64,000 bases of DNA from Candidatus Brocadiaceae bacterium (GCA_003551305.1 PUMJ01000017.1:3232-67231); one strand, 5' to 3'. Positions 462-48,000 are shown, counted from the first letter of the stretch. The notes: generated from the letters alone by a model not told the origin. Numbers and translations: made by a program.

Positions 462-1844
462 ATGTTCCGTAAAGTGGTTTTTCTATCCATATGTGCATGC
501 GCCCTGCTGCCCGGGTGCGAGAGACGCGAGCCCGAAGAGCCCGAACCCCGCCAGGTGGTCCGGGTGCCGCAGGAGCGCCCCCAGGTCCCGCCGGGGATGA
601 CGCCCATCCGCGAGGGGGCCTCCGTTTTCATCTCCGAAAGCCCCGTCACCGTCGGCGAGTACGTCGAGTACCTGCGGGCCACCGACCAGGGCGTGCCGAG
701 CCGGTGGCGCGGGGTCGAACCGGGCACCCCGGGAGCCCGCGCCCCCGTGACCGGGCTGAGCCGGCAGGAGGCCGAGTTCTACGCCCTCTACCGCCGCCAG
801 CGCTTGCCCACGGCCACCGAGTGGCGGGTCGCCGGCGCCGTTGTCGGCGCGCGCCCGTATCCGTGGGACGACGGTGAGCCCGCCGCGCCGGACGCCGAAC
901 TCTTCCTGGCCCAGGACTGGGTGCCCGGAACCGAAGCGGAGGAGGAGGCCCACCGGCGAGCGGCCGCACTGCCCGACCTGCTGCTGGCGCACCACCAGGA
1001 GGAGCTGGACGAGTCGCGCGCCGCCCTGGAGCAACTCGTCGAGGAGCACGAAGCGCAGACCGCCCGCCTGTGGGAGGAACTCAGGCCGGCTTTCTTTGCG
1101 ATGATTGACCGGCAGCGCGAACTGGCCCGCCACTCGGCCCGGCAGGAACGCCGCCTGGACAGCCTGGAGGTCGTCGAGAGCCTTTTCAGGGCCAAGCGCG
1201 AGATGGTCGCGCAACTGCCGCCCGTGGTTGATGATCTCAGCCCGGAGGAAGCCGACCGAGCGGTCCAGCGCTATGACGACCTGCTGGCCGAGACGCTGGA
1301 GGGCGTCCAGCAGGTCGAGGAGCGACTGGGCGAGGACATCCGCGAACTGCAGGAACAGGTCGTGGCGCTGACCCGGCGTTTCGAGCAGCACGGCGAGGGG
1401 CTGCTGCGGACGGGCACCGAGGAGGCCCGCCGCTTCCTGGCCGAACTCGACCAGGAGGCCGAATCCGTGCTGGAGGCTGTCCGGCGCAAGAGCCGCCTGC
1501 AGGAGGTGAAAGAGGAGCTCAGGGCCGTCGAACCCGGCCTGGAGGGGATGCCCTCGCTGGAGCAGGTCCGCCGCAGGACCGCCGAGCTGGAGGGCCGCCT
1601 CGACGACCTGACCGAAGACCCCCGGATACAGGAACGGATCGAGGAGGTGCAGGACGGCCTGCGCAGCATCGGTGAGGCGATCGGCCGGGAGTTCACCCGC
1701 GAGGAGGCCGTCTTCGAGCAGTTGCCCCCGCTGGTGGAACTGCGCGCCCGCAAGGAGGGCGCCCGCGCCGCTGCGCAGACCCTGCGCGAGGCGTTAGGGC
1801 CGGCCGCCGAGCCACAGCAAGCGCCCCAAGAGCAATCCGCATAA
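462..1844 (+). CDS. Lipoprotein with a truncated FGE-sulfatase (SUMF1-like) domain and a long C-terminal coiled-coil
   Basis: ATG at 462 preceded by AGGAACCAGGGAGG. Signal peptide plus lipobox (LLPGC). Segment PVTGLSRQEAEFYALYRRQRLPTATEWRVAGAVVGARPYPWDD matches the FGE motif PVVxVSWxDAxAYCxWxGxRLPTEAEWExAARGGxxYPWG, but the C-terminal catalytic half is absent. The remaining ~300 aa are E/L/R-rich heptad-like sequence. Confidence 0.55.
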   Translation: MFRKVVFLSICACALLPGCERREPEEPEPRQVVRVPQERPQVPPGMTPIREGASVFISESPVTVGEYVEYLRATDQGVPSRWRGVEPGTPGARAPVTGLSRQEAEFYALYRRQRLPTATEWRVAGAVVGARPYPWDDGEPAAPDAELFLAQDWVPGTEAEEEAHRRAAALPDLLLAHHQEELDESRAALEQLVEEHEAQTARLWEELRPAFFAMIDRQRELARHSARQERRLDSLEVVESLFRAKREMVAQLPPVVDDLSPEEADRAVQRYDDLLAETLEGVQQVEERLGEDIRELQEQVVALTRRFEQHGEGLLRTGTEEARRFLAELDQEAESVLEAVRRKSRLQEVKEELRAVEPGLEGMPSLEQVRRRTAELEGRLDDLTEDPRIQERIEEVQDGLRSIGEAIGREFTREEAVFEQLPPLVELRARKEGARAAAQTLREALGPAAEPQQAPQEQSA

Positions 1845-1874
1845 CGACCCTTCGACGACTCAAACCTCGCGAGA

Positions 1875-2735
1875 ATGCCCATGGGTCCGATGGAAGCGAT
1901 CCTGCTGGGAGCCCTGCAAGGAGTCACCGAGTTTGTGCCCGTCAGCAGTTCGGGCCACCTGGTTTTCGCCCAGCACCTGCTCGGAGTGGACCAGCCGGGC
2001 ATCACGCTGGAGATCTGCGTTCACTTCGGCACACTGCTGGCCATCCTGGTGGTCTTTGCCCGCCCCCTGTGGGAGACGGCGCGCGACGGGGTCCTCGGCG
2101 CGCGCCTCGTGCTGCGGGGAGAACGGGACCTGATAGCGGAGCAAACGCCCCTTTTCCCCACGGCCGTGGCCGTCGTGGTCGGCACCCTGCCGGTCGCGTT
2201 CGCGGGCGTGCTGCTGGGCCACCAGGTCGAGCGCCTCTTCGCCAGCATGGTCGGCGCCGGCGCCTTCCTGTGCGTGACGGGTCTTGTGCTGGCCGCATCC
2301 CGCCTGGCCGCGCCGGGGGAGAACACGGAGGTCGGCGTTGCCCGCGGGGCGCTCATCGGGGTGGCGCAGGCGTTCGCTCTCCTGCCGGGCATCAGCCGTT
2401 CCGGCATCACCATCGTCGCCGCCCGATTCACGGGTCTGGACGGGGACCGCGCGGCGCGCTTCTCTTTCGTGCTGGCCGCCCCGGCCCTGCTGGGCGCTTC
2501 GGTATGGGAACTGATGCAGGCGATGAATCGGGCCGGCTCTGCCGGCAGCATCGGCGACCCCGAACTCGCCACCTTTCCTCTTGTGCTGGCCACCGTGGTC
2601 GCGGCCGTGGTGGGGTATGCGAGCCTGCGCGCGCTGCTGCGTATCGTGCGCCGGGGTCGGCTCCACTGGATTGCCCTCTACTGCCTGCCCGTCGGGCTTT
2701 TCATGATAGCGGTGGGGGGCATGGGCGGTGGCTGA
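1875..2735 (+). CDS. uppP: Undecaprenyl-diphosphatase UppP (BacA)
   Basis: VSSSGHL motif near the N-terminus, polytopic membrane protein ~286 aa with the SRSGxT motif. Confidence 0.85.
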   Translation: MPMGPMEAILLGALQGVTEFVPVSSSGHLVFAQHLLGVDQPGITLEICVHFGTLLAILVVFARPLWETARDGVLGARLVLRGERDLIAEQTPLFPTAVAVVVGTLPVAFAGVLLGHQVERLFASMVGAGAFLCVTGLVLAASRLAAPGENTEVGVARGALIGVAQAFALLPGISRSGITIVAARFTGLDGDRAARFSFVLAAPALLGASVWELMQAMNRAGSAGSIGDPELATFPLVLATVVAAVVGYASLRALLRIVRRGRLHWIALYCLPVGLFMIAVGGMGGG

Positions 2736-3474
2736 GAAAGAGGCCGGCCGCGACGGCGGGCAGCTACTGCACGAACGCGGCTACTACGCCGAGTCCCGCT
2801 CTTTCGCGCTGAGCATCGTCAGTATCCTGCCCATCGTCGTGCTCTACCACGTCGGCATTGTGCAGAGCGGCTACCCGGTGCGCAACCTGGCGCAGGTCTG
2901 GATGGAGGGGCCGCTGCACCTGGTGGGGCTGCGCGCCGCGCACGTGCTGAACATAGCTCTCATCATCGCCCTGGTGGCCGTGCTGCTGCGCAGCGACCTG
3001 AAGGGTTCGGTCGGGCTCATGACCGTGGTCGTGATGGTGGCCGAGAGCGCCTTCTATGCGCTGGCGCTGTTCAAAGGCGGGGCCGTCATCACCTCACTGC
3101 TGCACGAGCAGGCCGCCGAAGTCATCTTCGCCGTGAACTTCAACCTGGAGTCGGCGGCCCCGCTTTTGCTTGCTCTGGGGGCGGGGGTTTACGAGGAGTT
3201 GCTGTTCCGGCTGGTGCTGCTGGGCGGCGGCACGCTGCTGCTGCACCGGGTCTTCTGCTGGAACCGCGAGCTGAGCGCCGTGCTGGCCCTGCTCGTCTCG
3301 GCGGTGCTCTTTGCCGCCGCCCATCACGTCGGGCCGGCCGGTGAGGCGTTCACCACCTACAACTTCCTTTTTCGCGCCGTCGCCGGGGTCCTGCTCGGGC
3401 TCATCTACCTGCTGCGTGGTTTCGGCGTGACCGTCTGGACGCACGCCCTCTACAACGCCATGGTGGTGTTGTAG
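2728..3474 (+). CDS. CPBP family intramembrane glutamic endopeptidase (CAAX protease / Abi family)
   Basis: EELLFRLVLLGG, FAAAHH and HALYNAMVV motifs in a multi-TM protein. GTG start overlapping the uppP end by 8 nt. Confidence 0.7.
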   Translation: MAEKEAGRDGGQLLHERGYYAESRSFALSIVSILPIVVLYHVGIVQSGYPVRNLAQVWMEGPLHLVGLRAAHVLNIALIIALVAVLLRSDLKGSVGLMTVVVMVAESAFYALALFKGGAVITSLLHEQAAEVIFAVNFNLESAAPLLLALGAGVYEELLFRLVLLGGGTLLLHRVFCWNRELSAVLALLVSAVLFAAAHHVGPAGEAFTTYNFLFRAVAGVLLGLIYLLRGFGVTVWTHALYNAMVVL

Positions 3475-3553
3475 GGGCGGCGCTTTCTATAGCGAGCAGC
3501 ATTGGGGAGGCGCCCCGCACCCGGGACCACCCCGCAACGCCGGGAGAGCGCGT

Positions 3554-4534
3554 TCAATCCGCGCCCGCGCCGACCGCTTCGGCAGGCTGTCCGGCGTCCT
3601 GCCTGCGTTCGGCCTGAGGCTCGGCCCCGGTGAGGGCCTCGATGACCTCGCTGCTTCCGTCGATAGCCAGCAACTTACCGGATTTCGCGACCACGCCGCC
3701 CTCTTCGTCAAGGACCACCCGGACGACGCCGAGAAGCTGCCGCCTGTCGGGGTCAATGGCGTGGGGATTCCCGCCGGTCTGGGCGATAAGCACGCCGTTG
3801 ACGTTTCTGGCGGGGTCTATGTGGCTGTGAGAGTGGCCGCCCACAATCACGTCCACTTCGCCGAACCGGGCGGCCAGCAGGAGGTCGGCCCCCAGGCCCA
3901 CGTGCGTCAGCAGCACAAAGAGGTTGTGTTCCTCGGCGAGGTGCAGGTGGTCTTCGACGGCCTGCGCGGGGCTCGTCAGTCCAATGCCCTCCCGCTGGCC
4001 GTAGCCCCCTCCCGTCAGGCCCAGCACGGCGACCGTCCAGCCTTCGGCGGTCTCCATGATAGTGTAGGGCTCCGGCGGGTCCAGTTTGTCGGTGCTCACC
4101 TCCACGTTGGCCCCGAGCAGGGGGAACTCGGCCAGGCGCAGACTGTCGCGCGTGATGGTGCCGTGGTAGGCGATTTCGTGGTTGCCGAGCGTGGCGGCGT
4201 CGTATCCGACCTGGTTCATCGTCTCGATCATGAACCGGGAGCGTTCACGGTAGAACTCCAGGTCATCCGTCGGCCAGCGGTGCCGATGCCGCACGAAGAT
4301 GTCCCCCGCATCGAGCAGCAGCACGTTGGGGTAGTTCTCCCGGAAATGCGCGACGACTTCCTCGAAGTCCTCACGGTGATTGAAGTCGAAGTGCAGGTCG
4401 TTGGTGTGCAGTATGACGATCTCGGTGTGCGCCTCCGGCGCATCGGATGTGGCGCGAACTGCCGAGGGCGCCGCCGTCAGCAAAAAACAGAACAGGATGC
4501 CAACGACCGCCAGGCATCTCTTGTGAAACCGCAT
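3554..4534 (-). CDS. Secreted calcineurin-like metallophosphoesterase (UshA/YfkN N-domain-like)
   Basis: ATG at 4534 preceded by GGAGGT. Signal peptide; LHTNDLHFDF, LLLDAGDIF and LGNHE motifs. No C-terminal 5'-nucleotidase domain. Confidence 0.6.
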   Translation of the reverse strand: MRFHKRCLAVVGILFCFLLTAAPSAVRATSDAPEAHTEIVILHTNDLHFDFNHREDFEEVVAHFRENYPNVLLLDAGDIFVRHRHRWPTDDLEFYRERSRFMIETMNQVGYDAATLGNHEIAYHGTITRDSLRLAEFPLLGANVEVSTDKLDPPEPYTIMETAEGWTVAVLGLTGGGYGQREGIGLTSPAQAVEDHLHLAEEHNLFVLLTHVGLGADLLLAARFGEVDVIVGGHSHSHIDPARNVNGVLIAQTGGNPHAIDPDRRQLLGVVRVVLDEEGGVVAKSGKLLAIDGSSEVIEALTGAEPQAERRQDAGQPAEAVGAGAD

Positions 4535-4649
4535 ACCTCTACCTCCGCACAACAGGATACTCGTCCGCGCGTGGCGCTCCTCCGGGGGGCATGGTAACGG
4601 CCGGCCAAGGCGGGGGCAAGAAACACGCCGCCGCCCCGGGCTCCCCTAT

Positions 4650-6002
4650 TCAACGGTTCTCTGCCTTCTCAGCGCCTTCCAGGCTCGCCCGTTCCGGCCC
4701 GGGGTCTGTGGCCGCCGCCTCGCGGTAGAGGGCAGCGGTGGCCCGGGCGGCCTTGCCGGCGGCAAAGCGGACCCGGGCGGTCCGGCGGGCCGCGCGGCTC
4801 AGGCGCTCGGTCTCCTGCCGGTTGTCGCGCAGGCGGGCCAGCGTCCGGGCCAGGGCTTGCGGATCGTCGGGCGGCACGAGGACGCCGGCGCCGCTGGTGC
4901 GCACCAGTTCGTCGAGGCAGGGTCTGCGCGGCGCCACCAGGGGCAGGCCGGCCTCCAGCGCCTCCAGCCACGCCATGGCCGTGGGCTCGTGCTGGCGGGA
5001 GGGGACGCAGAAAACATCGCAACCCCTCAGGAAGGCGGAGCGCGCCGCGGCGTCCGGATTGTCCAGCAGCTCGAGTCTGTCGCCGAGCCCCCGGTCGGTG
5101 AGCAGGCGGCGGCAGCTTTTCCAGTAGCCGCTGTAGTGGTGCGTCAACTGCCCGCCAACCGCCAGCACCGCGCGGAGGGCTCCGGGGGGTTCCTCCGAGG
5201 CCAGCCGGCAGAAGGCCTCACAGAGCAGGTCAAGTCCCTTTCGCGGGATAATGCGGGAGAAGAAGGCGATGCGGAAACTCCCGTCGGGCCGGGATGCTGT
5301 GCCCTCGGCGCGTCCGTCCAGCGGCAGGCCGGGGGGGACGATGTGAATCCGCTCGCGCGGCACGTCCAGGAACGTCGCCATCGTGTCGGCATAGCCGGGG
5401 AAGGAAGCGACGAAAGTATCCACGCTCCGGGCGTGCTCTCGCATGAGCGCCTGTGCCCGGCCCCGGTGAGGTTCGGGCAGGCGTCGGACGAAATCGTCCT
5501 CCCCCTGCAGGTTGCAGACAACCGGCACGTCGAGGCGGCTGCGCAGCCCGGGCAGGATACCGCTCAGCAGGGAGTTGGAGAGGTTCACCACGTCCCAGGG
5601 GCCGTTGCCGGCCAGGTAGTCCGTCAGCTTCTCCAGCTCCTTGCGCTGGCGGCCGTCCGGGCCGCGCAGCACTGAGACGGTCATCTCGCCCAGTTCTTCC
5701 GGCCGGGTCTCGACACCGAGACGCGACACGGCCCGCAGCAGCAGGGGCGCGTCGAGCAAGGCATCCAGGGAGCGCGGAGTGCGCCGGAACAGGCTCAGGC
5801 GGTGCTGCAGATAAACGTTGATAGCGCCGTAGAAGACGCGGTGGGGGCCGGCGACGTGCCCGTCGGCACGGAGCGGGGTGTAGAGGGGGAAGACGACGGC
5901 GTCGCAGCCGGCCTCGCGCAGGGCCGCGCAGATGCGCACGTCACGGGCGCAGGCACCGCAATAGCTGCCGGCCGCCCCGGCGGCAATGTAGGCTATCCTC
6001 AT
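4650..6002 (-). CDS. Glycosyltransferase family 4
   Basis: GT-B fold and GT4-like C-terminal E-x7-E region (HEPTAMAWLEALEAGLPLV). ATG at 6002 preceded by GGAGGT; overlaps the upstream stop (ATGA). Confidence 0.7.
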   Translation of the reverse strand: MRIAYIAAGAAGSYCGACARDVRICAALREAGCDAVVFPLYTPLRADGHVAGPHRVFYGAINVYLQHRLSLFRRTPRSLDALLDAPLLLRAVSRLGVETRPEELGEMTVSVLRGPDGRQRKELEKLTDYLAGNGPWDVVNLSNSLLSGILPGLRSRLDVPVVCNLQGEDDFVRRLPEPHRGRAQALMREHARSVDTFVASFPGYADTMATFLDVPRERIHIVPPGLPLDGRAEGTASRPDGSFRIAFFSRIIPRKGLDLLCEAFCRLASEEPPGALRAVLAVGGQLTHHYSGYWKSCRRLLTDRGLGDRLELLDNPDAAARSAFLRGCDVFCVPSRQHEPTAMAWLEALEAGLPLVAPRRPCLDELVRTSGAGVLVPPDDPQALARTLARLRDNRQETERLSRAARRTARVRFAAGKAARATAALYREAAATDPGPERASLEGAEKAENR

Positions 6003-27901: not shown

Positions 27902-28104
27902 AACCTGAACCTCCGGAGCGGAACTCGGAATCAGTGGCGATGCCCTCCCACGCGCCACCGACGTCGGGCCGCGCAGAGGACGGATTTTCTTCCCCAGAAC
28001 TGTAACCACTGCTACAGGTTGTGTCAAGGGCAAAAGCGGGTTCGACGCGGCCGGGCGCTACCGCTAAACTGAAAAGAAGGGTCTGGAGGGGAAGAAAACT
28101 CGCC

Positions 28105-28596
28105 ATGGAACGGCCACCGGAGTTCTTCTGCGACGCGATGCTGGGCGGGCTGGCCCGCTGGCTGCGCGCCGCCGGTTACCCGGCCCGCTTCGACGTCCAC
28201 ATCGCCGACGGGGAACTGGTCCGCCGCTGCCTGGAGGAAGGCTACGTCCTGTTGAGCAGTGATTCCGGCCTGCTGGAACGCTACGCCCTGGCCGAGGGGC
28301 TGGTGGAGCACGTCTTTGTGCCCCTGGGGCTGAGGCCGGTCCAGCAGCTTGCCCACGTGATGGGTGAACTGGACCTGCCCCTGCGCCCGGCCCGGTGCAT
28401 GGATTGCGGGGAAGAGCTGCAGGAGGTCTGCCTGCGCCAGGTGCGCCACCGCGTGCCCCCGGGGGTGCAGCGCCGCATGGAGGACTTCTTCCGCTGCGCC
28501 GGCTGCGGCAAAGTCTACTGGCACGGTACCCACTGGGAACGCATCCGCCGGCAGCTTCAGCGCGCCGCCCCGGGGGGCGGAGACGGGCCGGGCTGA
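28105..28596 (+). CDS. Mut7-C RNase-domain protein (PIN-like plus C-terminal zinc ribbon; DUF82 family)
   Basis: ATG at 28105 with GGAGGGGAAG SD. N-terminal FFCDAMLGGLARWLRAAGY and C-terminal CMDCGEEL...CAGCGKVYWHGTHWERI are typical of the Mut7-C family. Confidence 0.6.
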   Translation: MERPPEFFCDAMLGGLARWLRAAGYPARFDVHIADGELVRRCLEEGYVLLSSDSGLLERYALAEGLVEHVFVPLGLRPVQQLAHVMGELDLPLRPARCMDCGEELQEVCLRQVRHRVPPGVQRRMEDFFRCAGCGKVYWHGTHWERIRRQLQRAAPGGGDGPG

Positions 28597-28832: not shown

Positions 28833-30212
28833 ATGAAAGACATGGGCGGCGCAGAAAAGTTACCTGAACTCCAGGACCCGGACGGGGAGTCCCTGCCCTC
28901 CGATCCCGCCGAGCTCCGGCGCAGACTGCTTGAGTTGACCCGTCAGTTGCGCAGGGCGCAGGCCCGCATCCAGGCCCTCGAGACCGGCATCAAGGAGTCT
29001 CCGGCCTCTGTGACGCCCCTGGCCCGGGGCTCCGACAACGAAATGCGCCTGCTCTCCGAGCAGCTCGAACGCCAGGCCATGTTGCTGGAACGCGACGAGC
29101 AGGTGGCGCGCGAGCTGCAGCGGAGCCTCCGCCCCGTGATAGACGAGCAACTGGAGGGGATCAGGTTCGCCCTCCAGACCCGCCCGGGCACTCGCGTGGG
29201 CGGCGACTTCTACGATATCATCAACCTTTCGGATAACTTCGTGGCCTTCCTCATCGCCGACGTCTCCGGCTACGGGTTGCCCGCCGCCGTCATCATGGCC
29301 ACCGGCCGGCTCGCCTTCCGCACCTACGCCGCCAACGAACTGCGCCCGCGCACCATTATGGAGAACGTCAACCGGGCCATGCTGCGCAGCACCCTGGCCG
29401 GCCACTACATGACGGCCTTCCTCGGGGTGCTCGACACGGAGCTGCTCACCCTTCAGTACGTCAACGCCTCCCACTGCTGCCCGTTCGTCGTGCGGGACGG
29501 GGAGGCCGTACCCCTCGACACCGAGGGGCTGTTCGTGGGCATGTTCGAGGACCCGCAGTACGAGGAGAAGGGAATGCAGCTGGAGCAGCATGACCGCCTT
29601 TTCCTCTACACCGACGGGGTGCTCAGCAGCTTTAGTGCCGCCGACCGGCGCGAGTCGGAAAAGCGACTGGAGAAGCACCTGATGGAAAACGGCCACCTGC
29701 CCATCGAGAGCCTCGTCGAGCAGCTTGCCGGCATGATGGAGGAACCGGAAGACGACGTGGCCCTGCTGGGGGCCGAGATATTGCTGGAGAAGGCCCAGCG
29801 CAAGACCATCGTCATCTCCAGCCTCCCCAGCGAACTGCCCCACGTCGAGAGCGCTATCCTGCCGGTGCTGGAGAACAAGGGCTACGGCGAACGCAACATC
29901 TTCGCCGTCAAGCTCGCCCTCGAAGAGGCCGTTATCAACGCCATCAAGCACGGCAACGAGCTGGACGACACCAAGAAAGTAGCGGTCAGTTTCTTCGTTG
30001 ACGACGACCGCGCCATGATCTCGGTGGGCGACGAAGGGGAAGGGTTCGACCCCGACGAGGTGCCGGACCCGACGGCCGAGGAGAACCTGCTGGCCTCCTC
30101 CGGCCGGGGGCTCGCCCTCATCCGGGCCTACATGGATGAGATCCGCTTCAACGAAGACGGCACCGAGATAACCATGATAAAACATGCGCCCTGGGCCGCC
30201 GCAAGCCGTTAG
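28833..30212 (+). CDS. Fused PP2C-type (SpoIIE/RsbU-like) phosphatase and RsbW-like HATPase anti-sigma-factor kinase
   Basis: N-terminal coiled-coil; PP2C motifs GGDFYD and ADVSGYG...LLYTDG; C-terminal GHKL ATPase (EAVINAIKHG, GDEGEGFD, GRGLALI). Confidence 0.75.
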   Translation: MKDMGGAEKLPELQDPDGESLPSDPAELRRRLLELTRQLRRAQARIQALETGIKESPASVTPLARGSDNEMRLLSEQLERQAMLLERDEQVARELQRSLRPVIDEQLEGIRFALQTRPGTRVGGDFYDIINLSDNFVAFLIADVSGYGLPAAVIMATGRLAFRTYAANELRPRTIMENVNRAMLRSTLAGHYMTAFLGVLDTELLTLQYVNASHCCPFVVRDGEAVPLDTEGLFVGMFEDPQYEEKGMQLEQHDRLFLYTDGVLSSFSAADRRESEKRLEKHLMENGHLPIESLVEQLAGMMEEPEDDVALLGAEILLEKAQRKTIVISSLPSELPHVESAILPVLENKGYGERNIFAVKLALEEAVINAIKHGNELDDTKKVAVSFFVDDDRAMISVGDEGEGFDPDEVPDPTAEENLLASSGRGLALIRAYMDEIRFNEDGTEITMIKHAPWAAASR

Positions 30213-30247
30213 CCCGGGCTCTGTTGCTCTTCAGTGCGAGTGAAGCC

Positions 30248-30607
30248 ATGCGCGACGACACCGCTACCGGCGGGGCCGCAATCGAGAAAGAGTTCAGGGA
30301 CGATGTCTGCGTCCTGCGTCTTTCCGGTCAGATGCGCGAGATGGGCGCCGACGCCCTGCGCGAGGAACTCGACCAGGTACTCGAGGGCGGCACCTTCAAG
30401 CTCGTCTTCGACATGGGCGAAGTTGACTTCATCAGCTCCACCGGTCTGGGCCAGATGATGCGCGCCTACCGCACCGCCACCGGCAACGACGGCTTCGTCC
30501 GCGTGGTCAACCCCCAGCCCCTCGTCGAAGAGGTGTTCCGGTTCACCAAGCTGCACACCCTCATCGGCATATTCGACACCGTCGAAGAGGCTCTGGCCGC
30601 CGATTGA
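30248..30607 (+). CDS. STAS-domain anti-sigma-factor antagonist (RsbV/SpoIIAA-like)
   Basis: STAS fold with the conserved phosphorylatable Ser/Thr region (DFISSTGLG). ATG at 30248; the TTG at 30224 is an alternative start. Confidence 0.7.
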   Translation: MRDDTATGGAAIEKEFRDDVCVLRLSGQMREMGADALREELDQVLEGGTFKLVFDMGEVDFISSTGLGQMMRAYRTATGNDGFVRVVNPQPLVEEVFRFTKLHTLIGIFDTVEEALAAD

Positions 30608-30740
30608 CCGGCTGCGAAGGCAGGCTCCGCGCCGCCACCGCCCTCCCCGGGTACATCTCGCCTGTCCGCCGGCCCCGATGCCTGCCCTGCGCAGACCCAT
30701 CTGAAGACGACCGCCCGTGACGCGGCGCATCTGGCGCCAG

Positions 30741-32351
30741 TCACGTGACTTCGAACGATGCGATCTCGTCGAAAGACAAATCGTGCCGTTTCAGGTACTT
30801 GCGAAGCCGGTCGGCGTCATTCGTCGAGCTCTTCTCGCGGCGGGAGACGGCGAACAGTGTGCGCCCCGCCTCCGACAGGCTGGAGGATGAGCGGCAGACG
30901 CGGATGACCTCGGCAAGCTGCACCCGGTCGAACAGGTCCATCTCCTCGACCCGCTGCTCGCCGATGAGGGCGACGAGCTGATCGAACCGCGGTCCCTGGT
31001 TGCTGTGGTCCTTCCAGGATTCGCGCAGCCTCTCGATTTCTTTCGCCACGTTGCTTGCCGTGATCAGGCCCTCAACGGCCAGAGTGGCCATGCGGACCAC
31101 GGCGCCGTTCAGGTCTCGAAAGTTAGCCCGCCAGGCCGCCCCCGGTGAGATCGCAAAGTCCAGGAACCTCTCTCGGGCCCCCGGCTCAAACCTGACCCGC
31201 TCGCCGGTCCTCTCGGCGAAGGCTTCAAGCTCGTAGGCGAGGTTCGGCTCGATATCTTCCGGCCGCTCTCGCAGGCCGGGGAGTCGAAAAGTCCACAACC
31301 CGATGCGGGCGAGCAGGTCTTCACGGAACTGCCCGTCCCGCACCCGTGCCGGCAGGTCCCGGTGGGTTGCACAGATCAGGTGGAAGTCGCTCTCCACTTC
31401 ATGGTCCGCGCCGAGGGGCAGGAAGCGTTTCTCTTCCAGGGCGCGCAGAAGCATGGCCTGCTCGTCGGGCCCCAGGTCGGCCACTTCGTCCAGAAAGAGC
31501 AGGCCCCCGTCGGCCGCGCGCAGCAGGCCGTCGCGGTCCCGGGCGGCCCCCGTATAAGCACCCTTCACGTGTCCGAAGAGCGCGGACTGCGCAGCGTCAC
31601 CTCGCAGAGTTGAGCAGTTTACCTCCACCAGCGGGCCGCTAAGGTGGCCGTGCTTTCTTTTCAGCTCGTAGATCCGCCGGGCCAGAAGCGTCTTGCCCGC
31701 GCCCGTGGGCCCCAGCAGCACGATGGGGGCGCTCGAGCGCACACAGACCCGCTCGATGCCCTCGATGAGCCGGTTGAAGTCCGCGTTCCGGGTCTCGATC
31801 CCCGCTTTCAGGAAGGCCAGGTCTTCCCTGGTCTTGCGGCGAATGCGGCTCGAGATCGCCTCATAGCGCGCCTGCTCCAGGTCAATGCATCGGAAACTCC
31901 CGGCCGGCCCTTGCCCCGATGAAGGCGGAATCGTCTGAAGCAGGCGGGCCGGCATGAACCTCGAGGCGCAAAGGGTGAAAAGACAGCTCTGGATAACGTG
32001 GGTGCCGGTCGTGATGTGAACGAGGTAGTCCTCGTTCTCCAGGTCGAACGGGTATTCCTCGGCAAACTCCAACAGGGCTGCGTAGACCACGGCGAAGTCC
32101 CACGGATCGCTCAAGTCGACCGTCACCTTCCGCACGCACGTGCCGGGTGAGACCCGCTCGATATCCCGGGCGATCCGGTCAGCCAGGTCACCAAACCGTG
32201 GTTCGTGGAGGAGTTCCAGGCGTTTCAGCGGCAGCGCATCGTGCCGACAGGCACTGACGGTCGGCCGCCATACCCCCCAGCGGTCGGGGCCCGAGTGCGC
32301 GTCGAGAGTCGTGCCGAGGAAGCCGATCAGCACCGTGGAGGGCCGCCGCAT
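30741..32351 (-). CDS. rtcR: Sigma54-dependent transcriptional activator RtcR (N-terminal CARF domain, AAA+ sigma54-interaction domain)
   Basis: N-terminus VLIGFLGTTLDAHSGPDRWGVWRPTVSACRHDALPLKRLELLH...ITTGTHVIQSCLFTL...PARLLQTIPP matches, by recollection, E. coli RtcR (FGFVGTVLD...RWSKWRPT...ITTGTHVAQICWFLL...PARLIQSSPP). Walker A GPTGAGKT and the GAFTGA-region analogue HVKGAYTGA. ATG at 32351. Confidence 0.8.
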   Translation of the reverse strand: MRRPSTVLIGFLGTTLDAHSGPDRWGVWRPTVSACRHDALPLKRLELLHEPRFGDLADRIARDIERVSPGTCVRKVTVDLSDPWDFAVVYAALLEFAEEYPFDLENEDYLVHITTGTHVIQSCLFTLCASRFMPARLLQTIPPSSGQGPAGSFRCIDLEQARYEAISSRIRRKTREDLAFLKAGIETRNADFNRLIEGIERVCVRSSAPIVLLGPTGAGKTLLARRIYELKRKHGHLSGPLVEVNCSTLRGDAAQSALFGHVKGAYTGAARDRDGLLRAADGGLLFLDEVADLGPDEQAMLLRALEEKRFLPLGADHEVESDFHLICATHRDLPARVRDGQFREDLLARIGLWTFRLPGLRERPEDIEPNLAYELEAFAERTGERVRFEPGARERFLDFAISPGAAWRANFRDLNGAVVRMATLAVEGLITASNVAKEIERLRESWKDHSNQGPRFDQLVALIGEQRVEEMDLFDRVQLAEVIRVCRSSSSLSEAGRTLFAVSRREKSSTNDADRLRKYLKRHDLSFDEIASFEVT

Positions 32352-32425
32352 TTATATCTCCATATAGATATTTATAGGAGCATATAATAGCAGCGCCCCC
32401 CGGTTCTGTCAAGGCTCCAGGCGAA

Positions 32426-32442
32426 CTGGGAGTCCGCTTGCT
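32426..32442 (+). promoter_or_regulatory. Candidate sigma54 (-24/-12) promoter directed toward rsr
   Basis: cTGGgagtccgcTTGCtg: TGG, 8 nt, TTGC matches TGGCACG-N4-TTGC spacing. Lies between rtcR (activator) and rsr, about 180 nt upstream of the rsr start. Confidence 0.4.
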
Positions 32443-32621
32443 GTATGTGACTTCTTTGTAACATGTTACGAGCGCCGTGTTCGCCGCCGTGAACTGGCGG
32501 CACAGTCATTGCGATAACGCCAGACGCGCCAGTTGGCGCGATGGCTGCCGGAAACGGAGCCGCACCGGAGGGTCCGGCCCGGCAGAACAGAAGGATGTCT
32601 CCTGGTGTGAGGTGGACCACA

Positions 32622-34181
32622 ATGGCGAACCCGGCGCTCTTCCAGACGGCTCGGCCCTCTCCCGCCGCTGATCTTGGGAGCAATGAGGCCGGAGGGATGG
32701 CCTGGCGCCTGCCGCCAAAGCAGGCCCTGGCTCAGCTCGCCGCCACGGGATGTATGAACACGAGCTACTACGCGGACGCGGCCGTACAGTTGCAACAGAC
32801 CCTGGCTCTGGCCTACATGGTCGAGCCGGAATACGTCGCGCGCACAGCGGTCTACTGCCACGAGCGGGGCGGCATGAAGGACATGCCCGCGCTTCTGTGC
32901 GCCGTTCTCTCGGTGCGCTCGGGCGCATTGCTGGAGCGTGTATTCCCGCGGGTGGTTGACAGCACCCGGATGCTGCGCACTTTTGTGCAGATCATGCGCT
33001 CGGGGGTGGTCGGCAGAAGGTCGCTGGGCCGGTTGCCCAAGCGCCTCATACGGCAGTGGCTGAGGTCGCGCGACGACGCGTCGCTTTTTCGGGGTTCGGT
33101 GGGCAATTCCCCGTCGCTGGCCGACATCGTGAAGATGGTCCATCCCCGTCCCCACACCCCGAGTCGGGAAGCCCTGTACGGGTATCTTATTGACCGGCCG
33201 GTTGACGACACCGCGCTGCCGGAAATCGTGAAGAGCTACGAGACCTGGAAGGAGAGCCCGAACAAGGAGATTCCAGACGTACCCTTCCAGATGCTGGCGT
33301 CGATGGAAGCCGGCCGGCGGGTGTGGGCGTCCGTGGCGCGGAATGCCCCCTGGCAGACACTGCGGATGAACCTCAACACATTTGCCCGGCACGGCGTCTT
33401 CAAGGTCTGGGGGATGACAGACCTGGTGGCTCGACGGCTCCGCGACCCGGAGAGCTTGCGCCGGGCTCGTCCTTTTCCTTACCAGTCCATGATCGCCCGC
33501 CTGGAAGCCGCTAAGGGTGTGCCGCGGAGAGTCCTCAAGGCGCTGGAGGATGTTCTGGAAGCTTCCCTGAGCGGTGTTCCGCGCCTGGGAAGGCGTGTGC
33601 GTGTCTGCGTTGACGTCTCGTCGTCAATGTCCAGCTCTCTTACGGGCTTTCGCCGCGGCGCCACCTCAAAGGTGCGGTGCGTGGACGTGGCGGCGCTTCT
33701 CGCCGCGGCGATCCTGCGCCGCAACCCTGAGGCGGAGATCATGCCGTTCAACCATATGGTGATTCGCCTTGCCTGTGATCCGCGCAGGCGCATCCTGGAC
33801 AACGCCGCCCGAATGGCACGTTTCTGCGAAGGGGGCACCGGTTGCAGCCTCCCCCTGGCGGTGCTCAACCAGAGAGCAGCCATGGCTGACATGGTGATCT
33901 ACCTCTCCGACAACCAATCCTGGATGGACGATCCGTGGCAGCCGGGCAAAAGAAACACCAGGCTGATGTGTGAGTGGGATTACTTCCGCCATCGGAATCC
34001 GGATGCGAAGCTGGTGCTGATAGACCTTCAGCCGTATATGACGGTGCAGGCGCCCGATCGAGCCGACATACTGAACGTGGCCGGGTTCTCTGACCAGGTG
34101 TTCGAGCTTCTCCGCCTGTTCGCGGAGGACCGGCTTGACCCCCAGCACTGGGTGGGAGTGATAGAGGCAGTGCAGCTTTAG
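32622..34181 (+). CDS. rsr: Ro60-related protein Rsr (TROVE domain plus C-terminal vWA/MIDAS)
   Basis: Divergent from rtcR. N-terminal ALAQLAATGCMNTSYYADAAVQLQ resembles the Ro60 N-terminus by recollection; C-terminal vWA with DVSSSMSSS (MIDAS DxSxS). ATG at 32622 preceded by GAGGTGG; in-frame ATGs at 32541 and 32595 are alternatives. Confidence 0.7.
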   Translation: MANPALFQTARPSPAADLGSNEAGGMAWRLPPKQALAQLAATGCMNTSYYADAAVQLQQTLALAYMVEPEYVARTAVYCHERGGMKDMPALLCAVLSVRSGALLERVFPRVVDSTRMLRTFVQIMRSGVVGRRSLGRLPKRLIRQWLRSRDDASLFRGSVGNSPSLADIVKMVHPRPHTPSREALYGYLIDRPVDDTALPEIVKSYETWKESPNKEIPDVPFQMLASMEAGRRVWASVARNAPWQTLRMNLNTFARHGVFKVWGMTDLVARRLRDPESLRRARPFPYQSMIARLEAAKGVPRRVLKALEDVLEASLSGVPRLGRRVRVCVDVSSSMSSSLTGFRRGATSKVRCVDVAALLAAAILRRNPEAEIMPFNHMVIRLACDPRRRILDNAARMARFCEGGTGCSLPLAVLNQRAAMADMVIYLSDNQSWMDDPWQPGKRNTRLMCEWDYFRHRNPDAKLVLIDLQPYMTVQAPDRADILNVAGFSDQVFELLRLFAEDRLDPQHWVGVIEAVQL

Positions 34182-34330
34182 GAGCAACGGGCGGAATGCC
34201 GCCGAGACTACATGGGAGACGTCCCGGCACCCCTTGTCCGCCCGTCCTCCTTTCCTTCTCACCCTCCCGGTAAGCCGAAGGGCCCTTTGTCGGTCCGCAA
34301 GCTCCCGCCCGCTGCGGCAGGATTCGCCGC

Positions 34331-35434
34331 TCAGTGGTCGTCCGCCACATGGCGGGACTCCTCGGCCAGCCGCCGCAGGCTCAGCCCCCTCCACCAGAGC
34401 ACGGCCAGCCCGACCACGGTTATCGGCACCACGTTGATGACCCACAGCATGAAGGCGAAGGCGCCGGCCGGGCCGCGGGTCACCCCGTAGAGGCTCACTC
34501 CCGCCATTGCCGCCACCTGGAAGACGCCCACGAAGCTCGGCGCCTGCGGCAGCAGCACCGCCAGCGTGATCAGCACCTGCACCAGCACCGCCCCCCCGAA
34601 GGGCAGCGCCAGCCCGAACCCCTGCGCCAGGCTCCACGTGCTCAGCGGGTAGCAGAACCAGAGCGCCAGTGTCAGCACCAGCCCCGCCGCCACCCCCCGA
34701 GGGCTTTTCATGAATGCCAGCGACTGCACGACCGAGTCCGAGAACTCCAAGACCACGTCCGACCACTCCCGCGGCAGCGGCCTCAGCAACAGCCGCAGCA
34801 GCCGCAGCATGCGCTCCGGCTGAACCGCCACGGCCAGCAGCGCGAGCAGCCCGGCCAGCGCCAGCCCCCCCACCCACGGCGCGTGGGCCCGCAGCCGCGC
34901 CGGCCAGTCTACAGCCCGCCCCTCGGGTTCCTCCACCCGCACGGCGGCCGCTTGCTCGGCCTGGGGCGCCGGAGCGCCCTGCTCGGCAGGCCCGGGCAGC
35001 AACACCAGGGCCAGGAACACCAGGAGGAAGGAACCCATCATGTCGAACACCCGCCCCAGGCCGAAATCGGACCCGGCGGCGTGCCCGAAGTCCAGGTCGG
35101 TGGTGCGGCTCAGCACGTAGGGGCGGATGACCTCCCCGGCCCGCAGCGGCAGCACGCAGGTGGACATGAACCCGATCAGCGTCGCCTCCGTCACGTGCCG
35201 GTAGGGTATGTCCTTCAGCGGCTTCAAAAACAGCCGCCACCGCACGATGCGCAGGGCATACATGACGGCGATGAACCCCACGGCCGGGACCACGTAAAGG
35301 TAGTTGGCCCCGGTGAGGGAGGCCGCGACGTTGCCCCAGTGGCCGCGCAGAGCCCCTATGAAAACCGCCAGCGCGGCCCCGCTCAGCACCACTCCGCCGC
35401 CCAGGGTGAGCCGACGTCTCCAGCGCGCTTGCAT
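34331..35434 (-). CDS. Flippase-like / lysylphosphatidylglycerol-synthase TM-region family membrane protein (UPF0104)
   Basis: Polytopic membrane protein of ~370 aa with the R/K-rich N-terminus and LPxRxGE loop (LPLRAGEV) typical of this family. Start chosen at ATG 35434. Confidence 0.5.
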   Translation of the reverse strand: MQARWRRRLTLGGGVVLSGAALAVFIGALRGHWGNVAASLTGANYLYVVPAVGFIAVMYALRIVRWRLFLKPLKDIPYRHVTEATLIGFMSTCVLPLRAGEVIRPYVLSRTTDLDFGHAAGSDFGLGRVFDMMGSFLLVFLALVLLPGPAEQGAPAPQAEQAAAVRVEEPEGRAVDWPARLRAHAPWVGGLALAGLLALLAVAVQPERMLRLLRLLLRPLPREWSDVVLEFSDSVVQSLAFMKSPRGVAAGLVLTLALWFCYPLSTWSLAQGFGLALPFGGAVLVQVLITLAVLLPQAPSFVGVFQVAAMAGVSLYGVTRGPAGAFAFMLWVINVVPITVVGLAVLWWRGLSLRRLAEESRHVADDH

Positions 35435-35818
35435 CGAATTCCCCTGTCTGCCCGAAAGGGGCAATGTATCAGAGACGTTACACCCCCGCAACAGACCTCG
35501 CCGACGGGAGAGCAGCGGCCCCGCCGGCGGCCCCGGTCTTTCCCCGCGCCGGGCGGAGCCGTGGATGTCATCCTGAGTTCGCCGAACGGCGCAGCGAAGA
35601 ATCTCGCCGTTCAGGCGCGCAATGGACTGCGGCGTAGAGGTTCTTCGTCAGGGCTCCGCCTCTCCTCAGAATGACAGCGTTCTTTCCGGCTACACATTGC
35701 TTTTGCAGGTCTCCACAGTTTCGTTGGTCGGTCTTGAACCGGCCCTCGTGCCGTTTCTGCTCGTTCTCGGCGCGCCGCTGCGTTGAGTCGAGGACTACGA
35801 CCGGGAGCGGGCGCTCTA

Positions 35819-35846
35819 ATTGACACCGTTAAGCGCCCCGATATAA
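35819..35846 (+). promoter_or_regulatory. Near-consensus sigma70 promoter upstream of purM (TTGACA, 16 nt spacer, TATAAT)
   Basis: TTGACA at 35819-35824 and TATAAT at 35841-35846. Confidence 0.45.
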
Positions 35847-35910
35847 TAAAGAATCTGGCCTCCAACGGCCGCTGTTCTCGTCCTTTCCCCCGCCCCTTTC
35901 GGGAGCCCCG

Positions 35911-36978
35911 ATGAGTCCTGTCACCTACAGGGACGCAGGCGTTGACATTGAGAAAGGGGAGCGGTTCGTCGAGAGCATCGCGCAGGCCGTTGAGAGCACC
36001 TTCGGGGAGCGCGTCATGGCCAACCCCGGCGGGTTCGGGGCGCTGTTCTCCCTCGATTATGACGAGGATCTGTTCCGCCGTAACTACGCCCATCCCATCC
36101 TGGTCAGCTCCACCGACGGCGTCGGTACCAAGCTCAAAGTCGCCTTCATGACCGGCCGTCACGATACCGTGGGCACGGACCTTGTGGCCATGTGCGTCAA
36201 CGACGTCCTGGTGCAGGGGGCGGAGCCGCTCTTCTTCCTGGACTACCTGGCCACGGGCCGGCTGGAGCCCGGGGTGCTGCAGCAGGTGGTGAGCGGGATA
36301 GCGACCGCCTGCAAGCAGGCCGGCTGCTCCCTGCTGGGCGGGGAGACGGCCGAGATGCCGGGCTTCTACGGCGAGGGCGAGTACGACATGGCCGGCTTTG
36401 TGGTGGGCGTGGTCGAGCGGGACCGGCTTATCACCGGCCGGAAGGTCCGCCCCGGCGACGTCATCATCGGCCTGCCTTCCAGCGGCCTCCACTCCAACGG
36501 CTACTCGCTGGTGCGCAGGCTGCTGTTCGAGCAAGAGGGCATGGAGTGCGGGGACTCGCTGGAGCGTTTCGGCATCCCACGCACTGTCGCAGAAGAACTG
36601 CTGACGCCCACACGCATATACGTCCGGGCCGTGCGCCGCGTGCTGCACCGCTACCGCGTCAAGCAGGTGGTGCGTGGCATCGCCCACATCACCGGCGGCG
36701 GCCTGGTGGAGAACATCCCGCGGGTGCTGCCCGAGGGCTGCGGGGCGGAGCTGGACTCGTCCGCCTGGCGGCGCCCCCCCATCTTTGAGCTAATCCGGGA
36801 GCTGGGCCAGGTGCCGACCGAGGAGATGTACCGCACCTTCAACATGGGGCTGGGCCTGGTGCTGATGGTGTCCCCCTATTTCGTCGAGAGCGTGATGCGA
36901 CAACTGAGGCGGCACGGGGAGGAACCCGTCGTGGTCGGGCGGGTGGTGGAGGGCCGAGACGAGATGACCATTATCTGA
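35911..36978 (+). CDS. purM: Phosphoribosylformylglycinamidine cyclo-ligase (AIR synthetase)
   Basis: YRDAGVDI...GGFGALF...DGVGTK...GGETAEMPG is the classic PurM pattern over the full length. Confidence 0.9.
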   Translation: MSPVTYRDAGVDIEKGERFVESIAQAVESTFGERVMANPGGFGALFSLDYDEDLFRRNYAHPILVSSTDGVGTKLKVAFMTGRHDTVGTDLVAMCVNDVLVQGAEPLFFLDYLATGRLEPGVLQQVVSGIATACKQAGCSLLGGETAEMPGFYGEGEYDMAGFVVGVVERDRLITGRKVRPGDVIIGLPSSGLHSNGYSLVRRLLFEQEGMECGDSLERFGIPRTVAEELLTPTRIYVRAVRRVLHRYRVKQVVRGIAHITGGGLVENIPRVLPEGCGAELDSSAWRRPPIFELIRELGQVPTEEMYRTFNMGLGLVLMVSPYFVESVMRQLRRHGEEPVVVGRVVEGRDEMTII

Positions 36979-46497: not shown

Positions 46498-48000
46498 ATG
46501 ACGCTGTCCATGTCCGAGATCGAGTCGGTGGTGCAGGACTTGAAGCCGCGCCTGGAGGGCGGTCGCATCGAACGCATTGACCAGCCCGAGCCGGACCGGC
46601 TCATCCTCACCATCAGGAACCGGGGGGAGCTCTACTGGCTGCTCATCAGCGCGCATCGGCAGTTCAGCCGGCTCCACCTGCTGACCACCCGGCCCCCACA
46701 GGGCGAACCGGCCGCCGGTTTCTGCAACGCCGTGCGCCAGCACCTGACGGGCGCGCCCGTGGCGGCGCTGCGGCAGGTGCCCCGGGACCGCATCGTTGTC
46801 CTCGAGTCGGCCGAGCGGGACAAGCTGATGAAGCCGCACAGGGTGAGCCTGGTGGCGGAGCTGATGGGGGTCGGCAGCAATCTGATACTGCTGGACGAGG
46901 ACGACCGCGTGCTCGCCTCCCTGGTGCGGGAGGACAGCGACCGGCGCCGCCTGGTGCCCGGCGCCCGCTATGAGCCGCCGGAACTGCCGCCGGATCTGCC
47001 CGAGGCGGCGTTCCGCAACCGATTCGCCGATGCCGTCGAGCCCGACGACCCCCTCTCGCTCAGCCGGGCCATCATGGCGGTATACGCCGGCGAGGAAGTC
47101 GAGGAGCGGGTCGAGTCCCTGCGGGAGGAGGTCGGGGCGGCCGTCCGCCAGACCCGCCGGCGCCTGCAGAGGCGGCTGCGCAAGATAGCCGAGCAGCGCG
47201 AGCGCGCCGAGCGGGCCGATGACTGGCGCCGCAGGGGCGAGTTGCTCAAGATTGCCCTGCCCCACATCCGCAGGGGCCAGGAGGAGGTGGTCGTCGAGGA
47301 CCTGTTCGAGCCGGACAGGCCGCAGGTCACCGTCCCCCTGGACCCGAGGCTGAGCCCGACGGAGAACATGCGCGCCTGCTTTGAGCGCTACAAGAAGGCC
47401 CTCGCCGGACAGGAGCAACTGGCCCGGCGGGAGGAAGAGACCCGGCGGCGTCTTGAACGGGTGCGCCGCCTGGCCGCACGCGTGGAGGCGGCCGAAAACG
47501 CCGACGAGTTGAAGAAACTGAAACAGGAGAGCCGCCAGGCAGGCGTCGTCTATCCCGAGGACAGGCCCGAGCGCCGGCCGGAGGCACGCCGGGGGCCGCG
47601 CGAGTTCCTCTCCGCCGACGGACTACGGATACTGGTGGCCCGCAACAGCAAAGAGAACGAACGGCTGACCTTCACCATCGCGCACGGGAATGACTACTGG
47701 CTGCACGTGCGCGGCTGGCCCGGCCCCCACGTGGTCGTCCGCACGCCCCGGGGCGGGCAAATGCCCCAGGAAACACTGCTCGACGCCGCCCACCTGGCCA
47801 TACACTACTCGCGCATCCGGGGCACCGACTACGCCGAGGTGGCCTACACGCAGGTCAAACACGTCCGTCGCCTGAAGGGCGCCCCCACCGGGCAGGTCAG
47901 CTACTCGAACGAGTCCGTGCTGGCCGTCCGCTTCGAAAAGGGCCGGCTGGAAAGGCTCATGCGCAGCCGGGAGAGGACAGGCCACACCGCGGGCGAATGA
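46498..48000 (+). CDS. rqcH: Ribosome quality-control protein RqcH (NFACT family; FbpA-like)
   Basis: NFACT-N domain at the N-terminus, central coiled-coil, C-terminal NFACT-R/DUF814 (GWPGPHVVVR). Confidence 0.7.
   Translation: MTLSMSEIESVVQDLKPRLEGGRIERIDQPEPDRLILTIRNRGELYWLLISAHRQFSRLHLLTTRPPQGEPAAGFCNAVRQHLTGAPVAALRQVPRDRIVVLESAERDKLMKPHRVSLVAELMGVGSNLILLDEDDRVLASLVREDSDRRRLVPGARYEPPELPPDLPEAAFRNRFADAVEPDDPLSLSRAIMAVYAGEEVEERVESLREEVGAAVRQTRRRLQRRLRKIAEQRERAERADDWRRRGELLKIALPHIRRGQEEVVVEDLFEPDRPQVTVPLDPRLSPTENMRACFERYKKALAGQEQLARREEETRRRLERVRRLAARVEAAENADELKKLKQESRQAGVVYPEDRPERRPEARRGPREFLSADGLRILVARNSKENERLTFTIAHGNDYWLHVRGWPGPHVVVRTPRGGQMPQETLLDAAHLAIHYSRIRGTDYAEVAYTQVKHVRRLKGAPTGQVSYSNESVLAVRFEKGRLERLMRSRERTGHTAGE

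Follow-up and report, generated by a model that had tools for sequence, protein, structure and literature searches.

A short Y RNA and a probable reduced RtcR-controlled Ro60 operon in a Candidatus Brocadiaceae genome

Genes of the locus

Analysis of a 64,000-nucleotide (nt) stretch of DNA from a Candidatus Brocadiaceae bacterium (GCA_003551305.1, PUMJ01000017.1:3232-67231) showed a 3.6-kb unit that contained rtcR, rsr and a short Y RNA gene. The whole stretch is referred to here as the window, and positions are counted from its first letter. The locus represents the known rsr-yrlBA-rtcBA system in reduced form, and the window very probably holds a self-contained, reduced RtcR-controlled Ro60 operon. 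This operon would consist of rtcR, a predicted sigma54 promoter, rsr and a single short Y RNA, with no rtcB, rtcA or YrlA. An original prediction, made from the sequence alone, had described an rsr locus under RtcR control whose operon lacks rtcB and rtcA, and had expected a Y RNA beside rsr, and this core of it holds.

The rtcR gene (30741-32351, minus strand) encodes a CARF-AAA+ sigma54 enhancer-binding protein of 536 amino acids, and both domains that had been read from the sequence were borne out. The N-terminus matched the Pfam RtcR/CARF family (PF06956, 2.9e-66, residues 6-184), the AAA+ domain matched Sigma54_activat (PF00158, 7.5e-47), and the protein was 56% identical to Escherichia coli RtcR over 533 aligned positions (residues 1-530). 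The alignment reached residue 525 of 532 of the E. coli protein, and the Pfam scan gave no helix-turn-helix match in RtcR. The sigma54-contact loop is GAYTGA (residues 264-269; 31545-31562, minus strand). This form was rare among 48 RtcR homologues adjoining rsr, where it was present in 2 (the window and L062 from Phycisphaerae), while GSFTGA was present in 11. The gene is monocistronic and convergent with a STAS gene.

The rsr gene (32622-34181, plus strand) encodes a Ro60 orthologue of 519 amino acids with a probable TROVE-type ring and a vWA domain, and the ribosome-binding site GAGGTGG precedes its ATG at 32622. The vWA domain matched Pfam vWA_Ro60 (PF25045, 4.9e-17), and the translation contained the metal ion-dependent adhesion site (MIDAS) motif DVSSSM. 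Rsr aligned with the Deinococcus radiodurans Rsr structure PDB 2nvo (8.9e-17, residues 21-501 of 519), and further structure matches were obtained to Ro60 (1yvp/9nen) and to TROVE proteins (9l5y/9kop). A search at E<=1e-50 gave 7960 homologues; most of the 120 listed carry PF05731 (TROVE), homologues at 55-59% identity bear it as well, and the closest relative in the searched databases was 59% identical. The original prediction had named both a TROVE and a vWA domain. The vWA part stood, and the Pfam TROVE profile fell short on Rsr itself (E 0.0081, 15.8 bits against a cut-off of 23), yet Ro60 orthology was supported by 2nvo and by the homologues. As judged by these alignments, the window Rsr is a Ro60 orthologue despite its weak TROVE score, because the vWA_Ro60 match, the PDB alignment and the PF05731-bearing homologues, and not the TROVE profile, carry the identification; this other evidence is strong.

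Homologues from 80 genomes align from residue 1 of the protein that begins at the ATG at 32622, and rsr is therefore placed at 32622-34181. An exact look-up of the Rsr protein gave no match. The sole identical public protein call (P0001, 494 amino acids, from a 3.4-kb Logan contig) begins 25 codons later, so that 32622-32696 is skipped, and it looks N-terminally truncated because the homologues align from the earlier ATG.

A tblastn search with E. coli RtcB and RtcA as queries gave no match to rtcB or rtcA anywhere in the window, which covers about 30 kb on each side of the locus. The identical queries were run on a comparison set of 80 rsr-carrying loci from other genomes of many phyla (labelled L001 and so on, and referred to as the related loci), and rtcB, rtcA or both were found near rsr in 51 of the 80. 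The gene after rsr is a convergent membrane-protein gene with a Pfam LPG_synthase_TM match (34331-35491, minus strand), and the gap between the two is about 150 nt. The absence of an RtcB or RtcA open reading frame after rsr and the convergent membrane protein had both been noted in the original prediction and were confirmed. Because of this convergent gene, and because no RtcB or RtcA was found within about 30 kb, the operon cannot extend beyond the window. Convergent genes bound the rtcR-rsr-Y RNA unit on both sides, and it is therefore no part of a longer operon. At least one related locus, L020 from a Blastocatellia metagenome-assembled genome (MAG), contained rtcR, rsr and Y RNAs in a comparable arrangement, with no rtcBA within 6 kb.

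Partial gene sets were also seen among the related loci, with only rtcA kept in L021, L065 and L077 and only rtcB kept in L009, L017, L051 and L063. Two types of RtcB occur after rsr, one E. coli-like (58-68% identity) and one divergent (25-28% identity to E. coli RtcB). The divergent type is found mainly among Verrucomicrobiota and Phycisphaerae.

The RNA downstream of rsr

Comparison of the sequences downstream of rsr showed a recurrent element, which is the first one past the rsr stop codon in most loci. It consists of stem 1, GAAUGC, stem 2 ending in GAC, UACAU, a variable loop, GUCUC, CUUGUC and the second strand of stem 1. A seed alignment (A1) was made from 24 rsr-linked hairpins of other genomes, with the window left out. 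RNAalifold on A1 gave two helices with 18 pairs, and compensatory changes were found in 15 of these 18, including 10 of the 11 stem-1 pairs. In this structure 93% of cells were paired versus 66% in shuffles, with 0 of 500 shuffles as high, and only 33-46% of cells were paired when the partners were slid by 1-3 columns.

A covariance model (CM) built from A1, named R1, gave 140 matches at E<=1e-3 in the 80 related loci and the window together. All were on the rsr strand, and 73 of the 80 loci contained them. All but 5 of the 140 lay downstream of rsr, many started 0-120 nt past the stop codon, and 87 were 90 nt or shorter. A small third helix is present in many relatives, where a downstream AUGU pairs with the ACAU of the invariant UACAU. 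The longer matches included RNAs called as YrlA by Rfam (L035, 7841-7959; L001, 7721-7839), and on this ground the basal module that they share with the short ones is identified as the Ro-binding module of Y RNAs. Matches to Rfam YrlA (RF02553) lay between rsr and rtcB in 6 of 11 canonical related loci. A survey by T-arm regular expression in 75 loci with enough flank showed a YrlA-type RNA nearby in 66; those without one were the window and eight loci, and in these eight Rfam confirmed the absence of YrlA at the gathering threshold. Judged by its covariation, the element is a short rsr-linked Y RNA family, spread over many phyla and undetected by any Rfam 15 model.

Tandem arrays of 4-5 Y RNA genes, with hairpin-type and tRNA-like copies mixed, were observed after rsr in L064, L067, L079, L004 and L066. 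The L064 array contained four hairpin-type copies of 73-76 nt.

An unfiltered scan of the whole window with R1 found a hairpin-type Y RNA at the end of rsr (CM match 34186-34246, plus strand) with 52.7 bits and an E value of 5.9e-11. The opposite strand of the site scored 10.8 bits, and the next best match in the window scored 14.8 bits. Outer GGAG/CUCC pairs extend the hairpin to 34181-34250 (GGAGCAACGGGCGGAAUGCCGCCGAGACUACAUGGGAGACGUCCCGGCACCCCUUGUCCGCCCGUCCUCC), which gives a size of 61-70 nt; the hairpin opens at the rsr stop codon, and the CM match starts 5 nt after the stop. Stem 1 (ACGGGCGGA/UCCGCCCGU) is followed by the GAAUGC internal loop, stem 2 (CCGAGAC/GUCCCGG), a 12-nt loop (UACAUGGGAGAC) and the 3' strand CCCCUUGUCC. 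The single-sequence minimum free energy fold was the family structure, with 5 outer and 9 stem-1 pairs (z = -2.47). The RNA keeps the module GAAUGC...GACUACAU...GUC...CUUGUC with all invariant positions retained. At 61 nt it is the second shortest of the 140 family matches, one match in L021 being 60 nt. Neither a T-arm motif nor a D loop of a tRNA-like domain was found in it, and it has no AUGU partner for the ACAU of UACAU and so no third helix.

The original prediction had pointed to the 3' flank and the 5' leader of rsr as the places to look for a Y RNA, and to Rfam and tRNA-like scans as the means. The 3' flank contained the Y RNA, while the 5' leader, which gave no R1 match and a fold that did not significantly exceed shuffles (z = -1.5), was rejected as a Y RNA site. 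The scans came back empty and the RNA was found through R1 instead: Rfam gave 0 matches in the window at the gathering threshold and no YrlA (RF02553) in 30000-36000 at E<=10, and ARAGORN found no tRNA and no tmRNA in the window. A weak Rfam match in 30000-36000 at E<=10, RAGATH-31 (24 bits, minus strand), is the Y RNA hairpin read backwards. The two motifs flagged from the sequence, UCGGUCCGC and GGGUCCGG, proved not to be the Y RNA; UCGGUCCGC, in the 3' flank, had no CM support. The remaining 3' flank (34247-34335) showed no fold above that of shuffles (z = +1.2). Within it, AGCCGAAGGGCCCUUUGUCGGUCC (about 34272-34298, plus strand) contains a GNCGAA-like 5' motif and a CUUUGUCGG 3' motif about 10 nt apart. 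By eye it resembles a Y RNA with the interior deleted, and it gave no R1 match at E<=10 and no fold signal.

Promoters and the intergenic region

The likely sigma54 promoter of rsr is CGGCAC-AGTCA-TTGCG followed by ATA (CGGCACAGTCATTGCG; 32498-32513, plus strand). A position weight matrix (PWM) trained on the promoters of related rtcR-rsr loci gave this site 10.4-10.7 bits, rank 4 of about 128,000 positions, and GGCAC-N5-TTGC occurs only here on both strands of the 64 kb. Its distances from rtcR (146 nt) and from the rsr ATG (108 nt) are within the ranges of 45 related loci where rtcR is divergent. There the element TGGCAC-N5-(T)TGCA, often with ATA after it, is 100-242 nt away from the start of rtcR and 24-113 nt upstream of the ATG of rsr. 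For the window site, a transcription start site (TSS) is predicted at about 32524, which gives a leader of about 98 nt. Other PWM matches in the window lie inside genes or have poor -12 elements.

A sigma54-type element between the two genes had been part of the original prediction, as the TGG-N8-TTGC sequence TGGGAGTCCGCTTGCT (32427-32442, plus strand). This sequence exists, and its pattern is at chance level in the window (10 found, 8 expected). It reached only 2.6 bits with the PWM, and its distance of 75 nt from rtcR falls outside the related range. It is probably not the rsr promoter, and position, motif uniqueness and PWM score make 32498-32513 the likely site.

On the other strand, a candidate sigma70-type promoter with TTGACA, a 17-nt spacer, TATTAT and a TG before the -10 (32384-32412, minus strand; 11 of 12 positions) was the only such promoter-like site in 32200-34500, and it would drive rtcR. 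An AT-rich inverted repeat, TATC-N8-GATA (32355-32370), lies next to the rtcR start and is a candidate RtcR upstream activating sequence (UAS) by motif resemblance. TATC-N6-GATA was present in the rtcR-proximal intergenic part of 17 of the 45 related loci, and the N8 version in the window may hint at an RtcR binding site. TATC-N6-GATA was rejected as a universal RtcR site, being present in only these 17 loci and, as an exact motif, absent in E. coli.

Between the candidate UAS and the sigma54 -24 element lies a perfect 12-nt palindrome, GTAACATGTTAC (32458-32469). It is absent from the related loci compared and could be a site for a regulator or an architectural protein. A 16-nt inverted repeat, 94% complementary, was found between 32470-32485 and 32624-32639, the latter being the first rsr codons. 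It is probably irrelevant because its upstream arm precedes the preferred TSS; it would matter only with the promoter at 32427-32442.

Discussion

The locus shares several features with the rtcR/rsr-yrlB-yrlA-rtcB-rtcA locus of Salmonella Typhimurium (Chen 2013; Hughes 2020, PMC7790460). Both have a divergent rtcR, a sigma54 promoter before rsr (a predicted one in the window) and, on the rsr strand immediately 3' of the gene, a Y RNA that is presumably released from the operon transcript by processing. In both, the first RNA after rsr is small and not tRNA-like. Unlike the Salmonella operon, the window locus has no yrlA, rtcB or rtcA and no downstream toxin-antitoxin pair, it ends at the convergent membrane-protein gene, and its RtcR has GAYTGA. 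In E. coli rtcR-rtcBA (Genschik 1998; PMC9650030), the RtcR is 56% identical over its full length and the rtcBA promoter, TGGCACGACGGTTGCA followed by AT, is of the type predicted for the window. E. coli lacks both rsr and a Y RNA, and RtcR there targets the ligase and the cyclase, whereas the targets in the window are Ro60 and the Y RNA only.

Comparison of the RNA with known Y RNAs gave a similar picture of shared base and reduced top. YrlA (RF02553) shares the basal module, that is the terminal stem, the GAAUGC internal loop, the second stem ending in GAC/CUAC and the 3' strand CUUGUC, but the window RNA has 12 nt in place of the tRNA-like effector domain (T arm GGUUCGA, D loop). YrlB of S. 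Typhimurium, YrlB of Mycobacterium smegmatis and Yrn2 of D. radiodurans (PMC4201824) share with it a long hairpin of the 5' and 3' ends, a small loop, a 5'-strand Ro motif and a position adjoining rsr, a likeness of architecture by published descriptions. A possible T arm was reported for M. smegmatis YrlB, whereas the window RNA has none. A BLAST search with Salmonella YrlB in 2014 found orthologues only in Salmonella (PMC4201824), in contrast to the family of the window RNA, which covers 73 of 80 loci in many phyla.

Work on Salmonella, E. coli and Deinococcus allows a mechanism to be proposed for the window. RtcR is held off by its CARF domain, and binding of tRNA 5' halves with a 2',3'-cyclic phosphate leads to oligomerisation (PMC7790460). 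In the window, RtcR made from its own sigma70-type promoter would stay inactive until CARF binds tRNA 5' fragments ending in 2',3'-cyclic phosphate; the ligand-bound protein would then oligomerise, bind upstream of 32498-32513 and drive a single rsr-Y RNA transcript. Y RNAs are trimmed and protected by Rsr in Salmonella, Mycobacterium and Deinococcus (PMC4201824), and the window Y RNA is likewise predicted to be cut out of the 3' untranslated region (UTR) and stabilised by Rsr. Rsr is predicted to bind the G-N-(C/G)-GAAUG strand of the Y RNA stem on the outer face of its ring. Y RNAs act as modular tethers and gates that control access to the Ro60 cavity and bring in effectors such as PNPase (10.1101/312249); the Ro60-Y ribonucleoprotein of the window would gate the cavity, and its invariant GACUACAU loop may serve to tether an effector, for instance PNPase. 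The induced output would be the handling or decay of structured or damaged RNA, a form of quality control and not ligation, because the operon contains no ligase or cyclase.

Several findings weigh against a working RtcR-controlled operon of this kind. The promoter at 32498-32513 scores under the weakest training promoter (12.2 bits minimum) and begins with C, not T. The RtcR loop is GAYTGA instead of GAFTGA, a natural variant that is functional in HrpS (PMC3105312). One A-C mismatch is present in stem 2 of the Y RNA, whose apical part is among the two shortest in the family; this may be a decayed copy. Chen et al. 2014 (PMC4201824), who also give an Rsr footprint for the stem of YrlA, define the 5'-strand motif GNCGAAN0-1G as the likely Rsr contact. 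The window RNA has GCGGAAUG and not the published GNCGAA, which is a change from C to G. This change is compensated by a G to C change in the 3' strand (GUCC versus GUCG), so that the pair is kept, and in the 24 seed sequences the pair is C-G in 15, G-C in 7, U-A in 1 and unpaired in 1. Most likely, the published motif is drawn too narrowly and the window RNA does belong to the family. Finally, activation of E. coli RtcR needs both RtcA and RtcB (PMC9650030), which are not in the window locus; either they are encoded elsewhere in the genome, or the window RtcR works without them.

Encoding of both proteins elsewhere would make this a split system, in which rtcB, rtcA and maybe a YrlA-type RNA, in the RtcR regulon or constitutive, would give standard repair and surveillance overall. 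The chances for and against this appear even. RtcA and RtcB are usually unlinked in bacteria (Das and Shuman, PMC3854526), the E. coli requirement for RtcAB fits the same arrangement, and the data cover 64 kb of the genome; on the other side, no second RtcR-type promoter with a UAS was found in the window, where the remaining PWM matches were genic or poor at -12. The other option, put forward tentatively and with less confidence, is an autonomous degradation-only RtcR circuit. Here a CARF sensor working without RtcA and RtcB would induce only Ro60 and a very small Y RNA of the multi-phylum family that Rfam did not detect, with the GACUACAU apical motif, and not a tRNA mimic, as the effector dock. 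A decaying remnant of an rsr-yrlB-yrlA-rtcB-rtcA operon, in which a deletion took yrlA and rtcBA and left a truncated, nonfunctional Y RNA and a weak promoter, is quite improbable. The short apical region, the stem-2 mismatch and the promoter score below the training range fit such decay, as would AGCCGAAGGGCCCUUUGUCGGUCC if it were a Y-RNA-like scar, and the GC content at third codon positions (GC3) of rtcR (0.82) and rsr (0.78) is below that of most flanking genes (0.83-0.92). However, rtcR and rsr are full-length open frames with catalytic and MIDAS motifs intact, the Y RNA retains all its invariant positions, the supposed scar has no CM support even at E<=10, and at least one other genome, L020, also has rtcR, rsr and Y RNAs with no rtcBA within 6 kb.

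The Y RNA and the promoter themselves could each be read differently. It is highly improbable that the hairpin behind rsr is no more than an intrinsic terminator or a GC-rich stem-loop that arose by chance. It does stand at the 3' end of a gene, with a weakly pyrimidine-rich tract (CCUCCUUUCCUUCUC) after it, folding comes easily in GC-rich genomes, and the z-score of the hairpin is only -2.47; but a terminator scan gave no call at the hairpin because there is no U-tract, the R1 score depends on the unpaired GAAUGC, GACUACAU and CUUGUC and drops on the other strand, and these motifs recur after rsr in 73 of the 80 loci from many phyla. If the sigma54 promoter were instead TGGGAGTCCGCTTGCT at 32427-32442, the leader would be about 167 nt and 32470-32485 could pair with 32624-32639, so that the repeat inside the transcript could mask the start codon. 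The GG-N10-GC spacing of this element is correct. Its PWM score of 2.6 bits against 10.4 for 32498-32513 and its chance frequency make it an unlikely promoter; its distance from rtcR (75 nt) and that from the rsr ATG (179 nt) are both outside the ranges of the 45 related loci, and it lies only about 60-70 nt from the candidate UAS and overlaps the region around the -35 of the rtcR promoter.

In the reduced RtcR-controlled operon preferred here, the RtcR sensor would be wired to Ro60 and a Y RNA alone, which separates the surveillance and decay arm from the ligation arm. The locus would also be a natural test of whether RtcR activation needs RtcA and RtcB as in E. coli. A natural Y RNA of 61-70 nt with every conserved Ro-binding position would be useful for structures of bacterial Ro60-Y RNA complexes. 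The family is the most useful by-product of the comparison, and a model of it would better annotate Ro60 loci.

Genomic context

The neighbours of the locus are ordinary chromosomal genes: SpoIIE/HATPase, STAS, Mut7-C RNase, AIR-synthase-like, MatE, TetR and NFACT. The lower GC3 of rtcR and rsr, together with a nearest Rsr relative at only 59% identity when YchF has relatives at 78-80%, suggests that the rtcR-rsr module was horizontally acquired. The best named relatives of YchF, from Brocadiaceae and Planctomycetota, are at 64-68% identity. Two further RNA-related genes are in the neighbourhood: one for a Mut7-C (PIN-like) RNase domain protein (28021-28596, plus strand), at a distance of 2 kb past rtcR, and one for a ribosome quality-control protein of the NFACT/RqcH type (46498-48000, plus strand), 12 kb downstream. 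In L014, from an Acidobacteria MAG, about 28 tRNA genes lie directly upstream of rsr on the same strand (1510-5889), an array that is striking in view of the tRNA-related biology of Ro60, Y RNA and RtcR.

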